A model generated the notes under the pieces. It was given only the letters and a program-made list of their open reading frames with translations. It was not told the origin of the DNA and searched no databases. From Patescibacteria group bacterium (GTDB lineage: Bacteria > Patescibacteriota > Patescibacteriia > UBA2591 > UBA4787), in contig JAQUSN010000001.1 in the NCBI GenBank assembly GCA_028715115.1, positions 191,067 through 255,066 of the forward strand: a stretch of DNA of 64,000 nucleotides, given 5' to 3'. A program made the translations under genes and the position numbers. Shown here piece after piece: positions 29,470 to 38,586 of this stretch (positions are counted from its first letter, which is position 1; each line of letters starts with the position of its first letter).

Positions 29470-29541
29470 GGGCGCATAGCTCAGTGGTAGAGCACCACTC
29501 TTATAAAGTGGGGGTCGATGGTTCGAACCCATCTGCGCCCA
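29470..29541 (+). tRNA. tRNA-Ile (anticodon UAU, AUA-decoding type)
   Basis: GGGCGCA-TA-GCTCAGTGGTAGAGC-A-CCACT-CTTATAA-AGTGG-GGGTC-GATGGTTCGAACCCATC-TGCGCCC-A. The anticodon loop CUUAUAA carries U34-A35-U36. The acceptor stem is extended by flanking complementary ctctaagtg / cacttagag. Confidence 0.8.
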
Positions 29542-29618
29542 CTTAGAGAATAAAATAATGTTATCTACCGATATATAGGTCGCAACTTTATAAATTATTT
29601 TAATTGTAGCGACCAATA

Positions 29619-33909: not shown

Positions 33910-35181
33910 ATGAATTACACTACTAAAAAATTACCTAAAAATTTATTGGAAATCGAGGTTACCTTAACCGCCGATGAGTTAAAAGAATTTTATCAGCAGG
34001 CCTTGTCTGAGCTGGGAACAACCATAACTGTTTCTGGTTTTAGACCGGGTAAGGCGCCGCTTGATTTGGTTGAACGCCAGGCCGGCCAGAAAAAGGTGCT
34101 AGAGCAGGCGACTGAATTGGCAATTAATAAAAGTTATCGCGATATTATTTTAAAAGAAAAAATTTGGCCCATCGGCGAGCCAAAAGTCGATTTAGTTAAA
34201 TTAGCCCTAGACAATCCTTTTATTTTTAAAATTACTTTAGTTTTAATGCCAAAAGTCAAGCTTGGTGATTATAAAAAAATAAAAACAGAGGCCAAGCCGA
34301 TCAAAATCGATGAAAAACAAGTCGATAGATTTTTAAAAGAATTACAGCAAATGCGCCGTAAAGAAGCGCTGGTCAAACGCCCGGCGCAACTGGGTGATCG
34401 GGCTGAAATTGACTTAGAAATGTTTCTTGATAAGGTTCCATTAGAAAATGGCTCGGCCAAAAACATGTCTGTTGTTTTGGGTGAAGATTTCTACATCCCC
34501 GGGCTTTCTAATCAGTTAATTGGTTTGGAGATTGAGAAAACAAAAGAATTCAATCTGCAATATCCGGCCGAACATTTTGACAAAAAATTAGCCGGCAAGC
34601 AAATTGACTTTAAAGTAAAATTAAATAATCTTTATCAAATAGACTTACCGGAGTTAAATGATGATTTTGCTAAAGGTGTGGGCAAATTCAAGGACCTGGT
34701 CGGACTAAAGGATCAATTGCGGAAAAACTTGGAAGATGAAGCCAAGCGCAAAGAAGAACAACGCCAGGAATTAGAAATTTTAAAACAATTAATCGACAAA
34801 TCACAATTCGAAGAAATCCCCGAGGTTTTAGTGGAAAGTGAGCTGGACAGAATTATCGGCGAACTGCAGGCTACCATTGAAGGACAGGGATTAAAGTTTG
34901 ATGATTATTTGACTCATCTTAAAAAAACCTTACCGGATTTGCGTCGCGAGTTTATTTCTAAGGCCGAAGACAGGGTTAAAACCTCTTTGGCGATTCGCGA
35001 AGTGGCTGAGCAAGAAAAAATAGTCATCTCTGATAAAGAATTAGATGATGAAGTTGAGAAAATGGCCGCTAATTATGCGCAGGAGCCCGATTTGGTCGAG
35101 CATATTAAATCTGCTCGCGGTCGCGATTACTTATATAACATTATATTAAATCGCAGGGTTATTGAATTTTTACGTAAATGA
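33910..35181 (+). CDS. tig: Trigger factor
   Basis: N-terminal ribosome-binding GFRPGKAP signature and the overall three-domain length (423 aa). Confidence 0.85.
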   Translation: MNYTTKKLPKNLLEIEVTLTADELKEFYQQALSELGTTITVSGFRPGKAPLDLVERQAGQKKVLEQATELAINKSYRDIILKEKIWPIGEPKVDLVKLALDNPFIFKITLVLMPKVKLGDYKKIKTEAKPIKIDEKQVDRFLKELQQMRRKEALVKRPAQLGDRAEIDLEMFLDKVPLENGSAKNMSVVLGEDFYIPGLSNQLIGLEIEKTKEFNLQYPAEHFDKKLAGKQIDFKVKLNNLYQIDLPELNDDFAKGVGKFKDLVGLKDQLRKNLEDEAKRKEEQRQELEILKQLIDKSQFEEIPEVLVESELDRIIGELQATIEGQGLKFDDYLTHLKKTLPDLRREFISKAEDRVKTSLAIREVAEQEKIVISDKELDDEVEKMAANYAQEPDLVEHIKSARGRDYLYNIILNRRVIEFLRK

Positions 35182-35741
35182 ATTTTATGAAAATCGTTAT
35201 TATTTCTGACACTCACGACAATTTAACCAACACAGAAAAAGCATTGAAATGGATTAAAAAGCAGGGCATAAATACTTTAATTCATTGTGGCGATTTGTGT
35301 GCGCCGACTTTTTTGACGCAATTTTTAGTTAAAAAATTCACCGGACAGATTCATTTGGTCTACGGCAATGTCGGCGACAAAAAAATGCTGGAGCAACGCG
35401 TGGTTAATTTTCCTAGCGTTAATTATTGCCGTGAATCCGGTTCAATAAAAATAGACGGCAAAAAAATTGCCTTTACTCATCGGCCAGACAAGGCAAAAGA
35501 AATGGCTTTAACAGGAAAGTATGATTTAGTTTTTTATGGCCACACCCACAAACCCTGGGAAGATAAAATAAAAATCAAAGAGAAATCTATTTCAAACGTG
35601 TTGCAAAATAAAAGAAAGACAAAAAAAATCGTGCGTTTGGTTAATCCAGGGACGCTGGCCGGCATGTTTTATCGGGCTAGTTTTGCCCTTTATGACACCA
35701 AAGCTGATAGGTTGGAATTAAAAATTTTGGATAGAATTTAA
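35178..35741 (+). CDS. Metallophosphoesterase (YfcE/MJ0936 family)
   Basis: ISDTHDN...GDLCAP...GNVGD...GHTHKPW phosphoesterase motifs. Confidence 0.7.
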   Translation: MNFMKIVIISDTHDNLTNTEKALKWIKKQGINTLIHCGDLCAPTFLTQFLVKKFTGQIHLVYGNVGDKKMLEQRVVNFPSVNYCRESGSIKIDGKKIAFTHRPDKAKEMALTGKYDLVFYGHTHKPWEDKIKIKEKSISNVLQNKRKTKKIVRLVNPGTLAGMFYRASFALYDTKADRLELKILDRI

Positions 35742-35761
35742 ATTAAAAAAAATTTAAAAAA

Positions 35762-35790
35762 TAAGAGATCGCTCGTTGATCTTTTATTTT
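35762..35790. terminator. Bidirectional hairpin terminator
   Basis: aagagatcgctcgttgatctttt with U-runs on both strands. It ends the phosphoesterase gene (+) and the candidate sRNA (-). Confidence 0.55.
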
Positions 35791-35935
35791 AGTTATAAAG
35801 ATTTGGCATGGCCACGTGGCTGTGCCGATCTCCGCTTTAGGCACCCTGGAGGATTAGTCCAGATCCAGAGAGGGCTTTGTATTGAGGGGGTTAACTGGTC
35901 GGGGCTAGTCGGAAGGATCGGGACACCAACATTTT
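35791..35935 (-). ncRNA. Candidate GC-rich small RNA (about 165 nt) of unknown class
   Basis: About 55% GC intergenic block. A minus-strand promoter TTGACA-16-CATTAT lies at 35939-35966. The 5' segment GGUGUCCCGAUC can pair with the 3' segment GAUCGGCACAGCC. An internal hairpin CUGGA-CUAAUCC-UCCAG is present. It ends at the 35762-35790 terminator. Confidence 0.35.
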
Positions 35936-36017
35936 AAGATAATGTTAGGTGGATATTCCTTGTCAAAAAAGTTCAATCTGCTATCATTCTAATTAAGATT
36001 CTTTACTAATTTATTTT

Positions 36018-37640
36018 ATGCACAAAAATAAACTTTGGACCAATTTCGTTCTAATTTTGATTTTAACGATTTTTGCTTTATTGATTGATATACCCCGTTT
36101 GCCAAGTTGGTTTCCGCTTCACGGGTGGTTTACCGATCAAAAAGTTCACCTCGGTCTAGACCTACAAGGTGGCACGCAGTTAACCTATCAAACCAATACT
36201 TCTGATTTGCCGGCTGATCAACGAGCTGCGGCGGTCGAGGGTGCGCGAGATGTTATTGAACGGCGCGTTAATGTTTTCGGCGTTTCGGAGCCGTTAGTAC
36301 AAACGGCCAAGTCCGGAGACGAGTGGAGAATTATTATCGAGTTGCCCGGCATTAAAAATGTTAACGAAGCCATTAAAATGATCGGCGAAACTCCGACATT
36401 AGAATTTAAAGAAGAGGCGCCAGCCAAGGTTTTGACTGATCAAGAAAAAAAGGAAATTGCCCAATATAATATTAATGCCCAAAAAAAAGCATCGGATGTT
36501 TTAGCTAAGGCGCTAAAGCCGGGCGCTGATTTTGCCGCTTTAGCCAATCAATACTCAGACGACCCCGGCACTCAAGGGCAAGGCGGCGATCTGGGTTGGT
36601 TTAGCCGCGGCGTAATGGTTAAGGAATTCGAAGATGCCGCTTTTACTTTAAAGAAAGGACAGATTGCTAAGACATTAACTAAAACAGAATTTGGTTATCA
36701 TATTATTAAAAAAACCGATGAGCGAACCACCGATGATGCTAAAGAAGAAATTCGCGCTAGCCATATTTTGATTAAAACTGAATCAGAGGCTGCCATTGCT
36801 GCTGGTGGCGGTTGGGCCTACACGGGCTTAACTGGTAAGCAGTTGAAAAGCGCGACCATGACCTTTAATCCGCAAACTAGTGAACCGGAAATTTCTCTGG
36901 AATTTAACGCCGAGGGCGCGAAATTATTTGCCGACATTACTGCTCGCAACGTTGATAAGCCCGTTGCTATATTTTTAGACGGCTATGCGATTAGTATTCC
37001 GACTGTTAAAGAAGCAATTACGAGCGGCAAGGCAGTGATTAGCGGCAAGTTTGGCGTTCAAGAAGCTAAAGACTTAGCGCAACGCTTATCAGCCGGCGCC
37101 TTACCCGTACCGATTAAACTAATTAGTCAAGAAAGCATTGGACCGAGCTTGGGTCAAATTGCTGTGCAAAAAAGCATTGTTGCTGGCGTGATTGGCTTTC
37201 TGGCTGTAGTTATTTTTATGGTGGTTTTTTACGGTCTGAACGGATTAATCGCTTCTTTGGCGTTGTTGATTTATGCTTTAATAAACTTGGCATTATATAA
37301 ATTAATTCCCGTAACCTTGACGCTGGCTGGCATTGCTGGTTTTATTCTGTCGATCGGTATGGCCGTTGATGCCAATGTTTTGATTTTTGAACGCATTAAA
37401 GATGAGCGCCGTTTAGGTAAAACCGGCACAACCGTCATCGATGATGGCTTCCGCCATGCCTGGACCGCTATTCGTGACAGTAATATTACTACCTTAATTG
37501 CCTGTTTCATTTTATATGAATTTGGCACCGGCTTAGTCCGAGGCTTTGGCTTGACCCTGGGCATCGGAGTTCTGCTCAGCATGTTCAGCGCCATTACAGT
37601 GACCCGAGTAATTTTAAAATTATTCGTTTATAAAAAGTAA
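36018..37640 (+). CDS. secD: Protein translocase subunit SecD carrying an inserted PpiC/parvulin-like segment (nt about 36480-36785)
   Basis: LDLQGGT start of the P1 domain and C-terminal SecD TM bundle. Residues about 155-255 read [74 protein letters not shown]...IRASHILIK, a parvulin rotamase signature. Confidence 0.85.
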
Positions 37641-37710: not shown

Positions 37711-38586
37711 ATGTATAACATTGTTGGTAAAAATAAAATTCTTTTAAGTATTTCTGCTGTTTTGGTCGGCGCTTCAATTTTGGCCTTAACTCTTTGGGGA
37801 CTAAAACCGGGCATCGATTTTACCGGCGGCACAATCATGGAAATAAATTATACTAACGAGCGGCCAACCGCCACCACGATTAACGAAGAGTTGAAGGGGC
37901 TTAATTTGGGACAAATTGATATTCGTTATAGCGGTGACAATGGCGTAATTTTACGCTTTACTGAAACAAACGAGCAGGTTCACCAGGAAATTTTGCAAAA
38001 ATTAGGGCAGCCCGAAGAGACTCGTTATGAGTCTATCGGTCCGACTATCGGCAAAGAGTTGACCGGCAAGGCTACTTGGGCCGTAGTTTTGGTTTTGGCG
38101 GCGATTTTATTATACTTGGTTTGGGCTTTTCGGCGCTTATCGCGAGTTGTTAAGAAGGGAGAGTCGTGGCGTTATGGCGCTGGCGCAATGTTAGCCCTAT
38201 TCCATGACGTTATTGTTATGCTTGGCTTATTCGCCGTCTTGGGGCACTTTCGTGGTACAGAAATTAATTCGACTTTTATTGTGGCCATTTTGACAGTCTT
38301 GGGTTATTCGGTTAATGACACGATCGTGATTTATGATCGTGTTAGAGAAAATTTATTAGTTGACGGCTGGCGGGATTTTAGAAATACGGTTAATCGTAGT
38401 TTAAATGAAACCATTGTCCGATCGCTCGGCACGACCGTTACTGTAATCGTTGCCATTTTAGCGGTATATTTGTTTGGCGGTGAATCAACTAGAGATTTTA
38501 TCCTTGCCATGATAGCTGGTGTAGCGACCGGCGCTTGGTCTACGATAGCTATTGCCTGCCCATTCCTATTATTAAAAAGGAAATAA
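37711..38586 (+). CDS. secF: Protein translocase subunit SecF
   Basis: 291 aa with SecF topology and conserved motifs (DFTGGT, ...YDRVREN...). Confidence 0.85.
   Translation: MYNIVGKNKILLSISAVLVGASILALTLWGLKPGIDFTGGTIMEINYTNERPTATTINEELKGLNLGQIDIRYSGDNGVILRFTETNEQVHQEILQKLGQPEETRYESIGPTIGKELTGKATWAVVLVLAAILLYLVWAFRRLSRVVKKGESWRYGAGAMLALFHDVIVMLGLFAVLGHFRGTEINSTFIVAILTVLGYSVNDTIVIYDRVRENLLVDGWRDFRNTVNRSLNETIVRSLGTTVTVIVAILAVYLFGGESTRDFILAMIAGVATGAWSTIAIACPFLLLKRK

Follow-up and report, generated by a model that had tools for sequence, protein, structure and literature searches.

A SecD protein of Patescibacteria hosts a predicted circularly permuted parvulin domain in its extracytoplasmic P1 region

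Introduction

SecDF adjoins SecYEG; its P1 head is believed to take hold of the emerging chains and to draw them out by means of the proton-motive force. Parvulin domains found in this neighbourhood do not always behave as enzymes: the first parvulin domain of SurA keeps both active-site His and was yet reported inactive in standard assays, and the parvulin domain of PpiD was also reported inactive. In Pin1, the β1-α1 loop of the parvulin fold borders the substrate cleft.

In the described systems of translocon and parvulin, the parvulin is a separate protein. PpiD-YfgM and SurA of the E. coli Sec translocon are parvulin-containing chaperones that touch SecYEG or SecDF and receive the emerging chains (PMC9643414, PMC9987972). 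In Mycoplasma pneumoniae, the parvulin lipoprotein Mpn444 presents three cross-links to SecD and was proposed to fold the emerging chains (bioRxiv 10.1101/2024.09.05.611430). PrsA, the foldase of Firmicutes (6VJ6 from B. anthracis, 4WO7 and 1ZK6 from B. subtilis), is a separate dimeric lipoprotein, the N/C chaperone domain of which houses a parvulin domain of the canonical β1-first order. The coupling of extracytoplasmic folding catalysts to the translocon has thus far been studied piecemeal, on PpiD-YfgM, SurA-SecDF, PrsA and Mpn444-SecD.

Here, we describe a SecD encoded in a 64-kb stretch of DNA (the window) that differs from each of these systems. It shares with the canonical SecDF of Thermus thermophilus (3AQP, 5YHF) and Deinococcus (5XAN) the transmembrane (TM) domain, the P1 base, the P1 head and the TM Asp, whereas their base-to-head connector, which is about 41 aa long and lacks an enzymatic domain, is replaced by 137 aa that encode a predicted parvulin. 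With PpiD-YfgM and SurA it would share the functional logic, but these act in trans, as proteins of their own in which the parvulin order is canonical, while the SecD insert is in cis and permuted. In comparison with PrsA, the window SecD has neither a lipobox nor an NC domain, and the order of its parvulin elements is permuted. The likeness to Mpn444 and Mpn436 is that of a parvulin PPIase beside SecD in another minimal-genome bacterium devoid of outer membrane; their association is, however, non-covalent, and these large trimeric lipoproteins are unrelated in overall architecture. Finally, the B. fragilis PPIase targeted by BfUbb (8HM3, 8HM4), 28% identical, is a soluble periplasmic chaperone-type protein of 427 aa and lies outside SecD.

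What is new is the covalent SecD-parvulin fusion with its rearranged fold; SecD, the parvulin foldase and the concept of translocon-chaperone coupling are known. The sequences and their precomputed Pfam domains are already in the databases, where every source names the protein "SecD" only. In the full-text literature searched, which covers few subscription journals, neither a SecD-parvulin fusion nor a permuted parvulin was found to be described; absence from it is not proof.

Results

The host protein is a SecD

The host gene, secD, is followed by secF, the start of which lies 70 nt 3' of secD. The features are as follows.

36018..37640, + strand: secD (540 aa), host of the insert (ORF; TIGR01129, Pfam and PDB matches)
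36021..36089, + strand: N-terminal TM helix, aa 2-24 (AF2 DSSP; aligns to TM1 in the SecDFs of Thermus and Deinococcus)
36237..36416, + strand: P1 base, N-terminal part, aa 74-133 (SecD_1st PF21760, E 1.8e-17)
36828..37109, + strand: P1 head, aa 271-364 (SecDF_P1_head PF22599, E 4.4e-30, profile 21-114 of 114)
37113..37622, + strand: SecD transmembrane domain, aa 366-535 (Pfam SecD_SecF_C; invariant "GMAVD451AN")
37711..38586, + strand: secF (291 aa; TIGR00966, 260 bits for a cutoff of 160; SecD_SecF_C, E 3e-51)

The protein reached 390.3 bits against the SecD equivalog TIGR01129 (cutoff 244.4) over aa 45-533, which identifies it as a SecD, and Pfam assigned SecD_1st to aa 74-133, SecDF_P1_head to aa 271-364 and SecD_SecF_C to aa 366-535. 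Its closest PDB entries, by sequence as well as by fold, are the SecDF structures 3AQP, 5YHF and 5XAN, and NCBI holds an identical protein labelled as the SecD of a Patescibacteria MAG. Pfam, AF2 and Foldseek together give the architecture of SecD, i.e. TM1, P1 (base and head) and TM2-6, with SecF adjacent. The Foldseek search with the full-length model returned SecDF and RND pumps only and is uninformative on the insert.

The TM helix at aa 2-24 stands ahead of P1 and places the P1 domain outside the cytoplasm. Its base closes with the strand "TLEFKEE" (127-133 in the AF2 model) and its head opens at the conserved "LTGKQL", the counterpart of which in Thermus SecDF begins at residue 159. In the TM domain, D451 is invariant in 72 homologs, and "GMAVDANV" pairs with "GAAVDGNV" of Thermus SecDF; from its "AVDxN" motif, we take D451 to be the TM Asp of the SecDF proton pathway. 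In the 277 nt 5' of secD, neither an Rfam scan nor a tRNA scan gave a hit.

A parvulin domain occupies the connector between P1 base and P1 head

A sequence-only reading of this DNA had proposed a parvulin-type segment in the P1 domain of SecD at 36480-36785. These positions correspond to aa 155-256 of the 540-aa SecD ORF, where the sequence that it quoted is indeed present, and they fall within a longer insert:

36417..36827, + strand: whole insert, aa 134-270 (alignment with insert-free CPR SecDs; base/core HMM projection)
36438..36512, + strand: long leading helix, aa 141-165 (AF2 DSSP)
36453..36728, + strand: parvulin body, aa 146-237 (α1-α2-α3-β2-α4-β3-β4, with the final "FGYHIIKK")

In the alignment with Thermus SecDF (3AQP), residues 31-132 of the query match 20-117 and residues 270-534 match 159-423, so that 137 aa of the window SecD stand where 3AQP has about 41. 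Alignment with insert-free CPR SecDs puts the extra segment precisely after the final strand of the P1 base ("LEFKE") and before the conserved opening of the head ("TGLTGKxL"). At this site, these relatives show nothing more than a short linker devoid of conservation, which disposes of the possibility that the segment is ordinary P1 sequence.

The Pfam search for rotamase domains gave a match far beyond chance. PF13616 (Rotamase_3) covers aa 146-235 with an E value of 9.9e-27 and 94.2 bits (cutoff 22.5), and PF00639 (Rotamase) gives an E value of 8e-22 and 78.4 bits (cutoff 21.7), which assigns the segment to the parvulin family. By contrast with these family cutoffs, the models of individual parvulin proteins do not claim it: PRK02998 and PRK03095 (PrsA) scored 89.3 and 82.8 bits for cutoffs of 360 and 361, essentially over the parvulin region only, while PRK10770 (SurA) scored 58.3 for a cutoff of 394 and PRK10788 (PpiD-type) 43.1 for a cutoff of 493.

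The 137-aa insert consists of the leading helix, the parvulin body, a relocated β1 strand and a short linker. The C-terminal half of the helix at aa 141-165 is the parvulin α1, and the helix contains Y150-N151 (Y17 and N18 of the insert), invariant in the homolog alignment of the family. The structure prediction that had been suggested as a check gave, for the insert modelled on its own, a single compact domain that includes the trailing strand, with a pLDDT of 92.3 and a pTM of 0.85; the pTM of the full-length SecD model is only 0.52. The predicted insert has the parvulin fold, in which four helices pack against an antiparallel sheet of four strands.

The first strand of the fold follows the last one

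The canonical parvulin order is β1-α1-α2-α3-β2-α4-β3-β4. The insert departs from it, with the order α1-α2-α3-β2-α4-β3-β4-β1, and the Pfam matches begin accordingly at position 28 of 116 (PF13616) and 14 of 97 (PF00639) of the profiles, the N-terminal β1, usual bearer of the first catalytic His, being missing in front. The non-canonical order noticed in the sequence-only reading is thus correct: β1 is absent ahead of the body, and the β1-type motif "IRASHILIK" (about aa 243-255) comes after β4, 21 residues downstream of the GYH228 motif.

36744..36776, + strand: relocated β1 strand, aa 243-253, [11 protein letters not shown] (AF2; in-silico transplant; Pin1 match)

When aa 241-258 were moved in silico to the front of the body, the PF00639 score rose from 83.0 to 90.2 bits and the coverage of the profile from 12-97 to 1-97 of 97, and the same transplant raised Rotamase_3 from 99.8 to 108.4 bits. 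The match of this un-permuted synthetic sequence to human Pin1 widened from 93-163 to 54-163, i.e. to the whole PPIase domain. In the AF2 models, strand 243-253 forms a hairpin after β4, with a pLDDT of 96-98 in the insert-only model. Considering the AF2 secondary structure, its confidence values and the sequence logic, on which the equivalence in three dimensions is based, it is strongly indicated that the trailing strand 243-253 is the spatial counterpart of the canonical β1.

The SecD strand "TLEFKEE" was considered as an N-terminal β1 and rejected: it is part of SecD_1st, aa 134-140 are coil, and a helix comes next.

Profiles and models together confirm that the window SecD hosts a complete parvulin domain, predicted to be circularly permuted, in its outward-facing part. 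The permutation cuts the β1-α1 loop and so makes a phosphate-binding loop of the Pin1 type impossible; we infer that the insert should be non-phospho-specific, as PrsA and Par10 are.

The active site is conserved on both sides of the cut

The residues of the active site were matched to Pin1 and Par14 positions by motif, an assignment that we assume to hold, and their conservation was counted in 113 single-unit homologs.

36561..36563, + strand: codon of Asp182 (D in 108, C in 4 and E in 1 of 113)
36684..36686, + strand: codon of Thr223, fourth member of the active-site tetrad (T in 88, S in 25 of 113)
36699..36701, + strand: codon of His228, in the "GYH" of β4 (H in 113/113; invariant also in a further homolog alignment)
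36762..36764, + strand: codon of His249, the His of the relocated β1, C-terminal to the body (H in 113/113)

All the residues of a parvulin active site, H249, H228, D182, T223, L192, M200 and F204, are present. Phe204 is invariant as well (113/113), and Met200 and Leu192 are kept in 90% and 88% of these homologs. From its position in the "YSxD" motif, Asp182 is presumably the equivalent of Asp74 in Par14 and Cys113 in Pin1, and the Cys found at position 182 in some homologs would then be the Pin1-type residue. As judged from these counts, the active site is under selection in the single-unit SecD inserts. The His on the relocated strand remains invariant, which would be hard to explain unless both His met in a functional site, as they presumably do.

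Some relatives carry two parvulin units

In 19 proteins (about 685 aa, plus Peregrinibacteria fusions), the insert holds two units in the order body 1, strand, body 2, strand. The β4 His is kept in 1/19 of the first bodies and in 19/19 of the second ones, while the His of the strands is kept in 18/19 at the middle position and in 4/19 at the final one, where it is usually replaced by Arg. The sole protein with the His of body 1 also retains the His of the final strand. Pfam reads the middle strand with body 2 as a full-length canonical parvulin. The most economical reading, drawn from the co-loss of His in these 19 sequences, is that an intact canonical unit may be nested in the β4-β1 loop of a catalytically degenerate permuted unit. 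The same loop appears to tolerate insertions in the single-unit forms too, since the spacing between their two His is bimodal, with 20-22 aa in 71 sequences and 38-41 aa in 24.

The body of the first parvulin domain of SurA and the β1 of its second domain (175-274) are colinear with the insert. The classical route, in which a gene segment is duplicated in tandem and then truncated on either side, would explain the permuted order, and we infer that it arose in this way from a tandem parvulin pair. The alternatives left by the sequence-only reading, a permuted or a partially duplicated module, are hence separated: "permuted" describes the present-day fold, on account of the transplant, the AF2 models and the Pin1 match, while "partial duplicate" is plausible only as its origin, given the colinearity with SurA and the two-unit relatives.

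The insert marks one cluster of patescibacterial SecDs

Rotamase domains were found in all the 120 best database homologs (54-100% identity; NCBI, JGI, ENA and Logan). For a survey of SecD architectures, as had been proposed, we took the 80 species-representative genomes whose SecDs resemble that of the window most closely. Among them, the insert was seen in Buchananbacteria, Kerfeldbacteria, Moranbacteria, unclassified Patescibacteria/Parcubacteria and Peregrinibacteria, the carriers in the latter being SecDF fusions. It was absent from the SecDs sampled in Uhr-, Taga-, Davies-, Ryan-, Taylor-, Niyogi- and Saccharibacteria and in Gracilibacteria, and from all the non-CPR SecDs sampled. The insertion site is identical across Buchanan-, Kerfeld-, Moran- and Peregrinibacteria. 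The base-to-head linker has a median of 38 aa in the proteins without parvulin (n = 69; 6-60 aa in many insert-free CPR SecDs), and measures 136-156 aa where one unit is present and 244-282 aa where there are two. Other phyla present unrelated insertions of 85-204 aa at the base-head site.

When the insert columns were left out and a neighbour-joining tree was built on the SecD core, the carriers formed one mostly contiguous cluster with 3 insert-free members inside. The tree, which is only indicative, suggests that the parvulin insert is an old acquisition with occasional loss. In the SecDs sampled, the architecture is thus common within a single patescibacterial cluster, always at the same site, and with two units in some relatives. 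No stand-alone parvulin gene was found within about 6 kb of secD in the 80 loci, and no second parvulin was found in the 64-kb window.

The permuted order outside SecD

An exhaustive search with the insert profile among 1.84 billion representatives gave 51,319 parvulin-like clusters. The top of this search is mostly made of proteins with 3-7 parvulin units and is unsuitable for counting SecD fusions, but it provides a control for the element order. Among the best 150 of the 51,319 clusters, 8 are SecDs, all of them (8/8) without an upstream β1; the other 142 are non-SecD proteins, of which 122 have the canonical β1-first order and none shows a convincing permutation.

The B. fragilis PPIase gave a different picture. 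Its sequence match (8HM3, 8HM4) begins in the leading helix of the insert and extends over the trailing strand, skips a β1 transplanted to the N-terminus, and loses score once the strand is moved. This protein probably shares the permuted topology, as far as its sequence match tells, and the permutation itself may therefore already sit in the PDB, described or not.

Discussion

We consider it likely, though well short of certain, that the permuted parvulin of SecD is a working translocon-tethered foldase or PPIase, the order of which derives from a tandem pair. This proposal rests on the conserved active-site residues and on analogy. The insert occupies the naturally variable connector between P1 base and P1 head, on the extracytoplasmic side, and in the predicted fold the relocated β1 hairpins back beside β4 and gives the second active-site His. 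Considering that SecDF lies beside the SecYEG exit and that its P1 head handles the emerging chains, the fused parvulin should meet the same chains. It may then bind the unfolded secretory chains emerging from SecYEG and speed their prolyl isomerisation and folding, and/or hold them for folding. The foldase job would be done in cis, whereas PrsA, PpiD, SurA and Mycoplasma Mpn444 do it in trans.

Conserved catalytic residues are no guarantee of activity, as the first parvulin domain of SurA, inactive despite its two His, illustrates. The main alternative is a catalytically silent chaperone or docking element: at the translocon, the module would hold unfolded chains or a partner protein but isomerise no prolines. 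Translocon-associated parvulin domains devoid of measurable PPIase activity are known (PpiD, SurA P1), and the two-unit relatives retain a unit stripped of its catalytic His, which implies that the parvulin fold may be useful without catalysis. Nevertheless, the two-unit forms always keep one fully intact site, and in the single-unit forms the active site is strictly conserved, with both His and Phe204 in 113/113 and D or C at position 182 in 112/113. Owing to this conservation, we regard a silent module as rather unlikely.

A bolder extension of the foldase proposal is that the parvulin is mechanically coupled to the swing of the P1 head driven by the proton-motive force, so that capture and release in its cleft would be energised from the membrane. 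The permutation would be important here, since it puts both tethers at the cut β1-α1 loop; this would turn the cleft towards the base-head hinge that holds the emerging chain, and a chaperone or isomerase cycle could in this way operate in a compartment without ATP. We find this coupling unlikely.

The insert could also act on SecDF itself, as a structural or regulatory element of the base-head hinge that tunes the cycle of the P1 head and leaves the substrates alone. Its position, exactly in the base-to-head connector, agrees with such a role, and the unrelated insertions of other phyla at this site suggest that it may tolerate or exploit bulky modules mechanically. A mechanical spacer, however, needs no conserved PPIase active site, and many CPR SecDs work with short linkers there, which makes a pure hinge element very improbable.

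An artefact or a decaying remnant, i.e. a mis-assembly or frameshift joining prsA and secD or a truncated duplicate that does not fold, might be suspected from the metagenome-assembled source and from the parvulin match incomplete at its N-terminus, but it is effectively refuted, with a negligible probability, by the single ORF with SecD sequence in frame on both flanks, by more than 120 homologs of the same architecture in independent NCBI, JGI, ENA and Logan assemblies, and by the missing strand, which is found downstream, invariant and confidently modelled.

As to the family, the permuted parvulin foldase proposed here offers a clean natural case of a small enzyme fold that is circularly permuted, and its single- and two-unit relatives resemble snapshots of a duplication-and-truncation route. 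For the Patescibacteria, annotation is concerned in both directions: the pipelines say "SecD" and overlook the enzyme domain, and an automated call of "PrsA present" may sometimes be a SecD. A survey reported PrsA annotations in all the CPR classes (PMC9166423), and we speculate that some of these could really be parvulin-bearing SecDs. The fusion would also provide a simple single-polypeptide system for testing the coupling between translocon and foldase. Finally, a natural covalent fusion that is widespread and strongly conserved gives independent evidence, drawn from evolution, that SecDF and a parvulin foldase act simultaneously on one and the same substrate.

Genomic context of secD

Upstream of secD, the window carries the following features on the way to the secD start.

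33910-35181, + strand: trigger factor gene (tig), with Trigger_N, FKBP_C and Trigger_C domains
35178-35741: metallophosphoesterase gene, between the trigger factor gene and secD
35742-36017: non-coding gap of 277 nt, directly upstream of secD
35776-35937: TTG-start ORF of 53 codons, inside this gap

Trigger factor is the ribosome-associated PPIase chaperone of the cytoplasm, and secD lies less than 1 kb downstream of its gene. The 277-nt gap gave no Rfam or tRNA matches. In other bacteria, sec genes can be preceded by regulatory arrest peptides, the subject of PMC12992588.

A tRNA gene is also present in the window.

29470-29542, + strand: tRNA-Ile, anticodon UAU

In most bacteria AUA is decoded by a lysidine-modified CAU tRNA, instead of a UAU anticodon.

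Parvulin units in SecD and in other proteins

Two parvulin units at the same SecD site were found at the loci L006-L009, L023 and L027 and in the proteins P0087, P0093, P0095, P0100, P0101, P0103, P0104, P0112, P0113, P0115, P0117, P0118 and P0120. In these SecDs the β4 His is gone from unit 1 and Arg usually replaces His in the final trailing strand, while unit 2 and the middle strand are intact. Because His is lost from unit 1 and usually from the final strand, with the middle strand and unit 2 kept, the sequences suggest that a canonical parvulin unit is nested within a degenerate permuted unit.

In the insert-profile search of the representative library, proteins with 3-7 parvulin units in tandem and a length of 320-1040 aa (P0121-P0130, P0146, P0166 and P0217) scored above the SecD inserts. 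The leading helix of the insert carries a Tyr-Asn pair, Y150-N151 (window 36465-36470), which is invariant across the family and is not known as a parvulin motif; it may mark the interface of the insert with the SecD P1 domain.

The base-to-head connector

The SecD of locus L018 (ORF 662-2344) is placed amid the two-unit forms in the core tree and has no parvulin at the insertion site, where residues from about 168 to 229, numbered along the stop-to-stop translation, form a low-complexity linker of about 60 aa rich in Ser, Thr and Glu. The insert looks to have been lost secondarily. L018 is one of six MAG records, with L002, L007, L009, L013 and L017, titled Lysobacteraceae or "uncultured Gammaproteobacteria"; their SecDs group with Patescibacteria and several bear the CPR-specific parvulin insert, and these labels are probably wrong.

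At the same site, linkers of 85-204 aa, in which a parvulin signal is absent, occur in non-CPR SecDs of Dehalococcoidia, Ignavibacteria/Melioribacteraceae, Calditrichaceae, Fibrobacteraceae and others (L026, L055, L058, L059, L071, L074, L075, L080 and further loci). The SecD base-to-head connector is a general insertion hot-spot.
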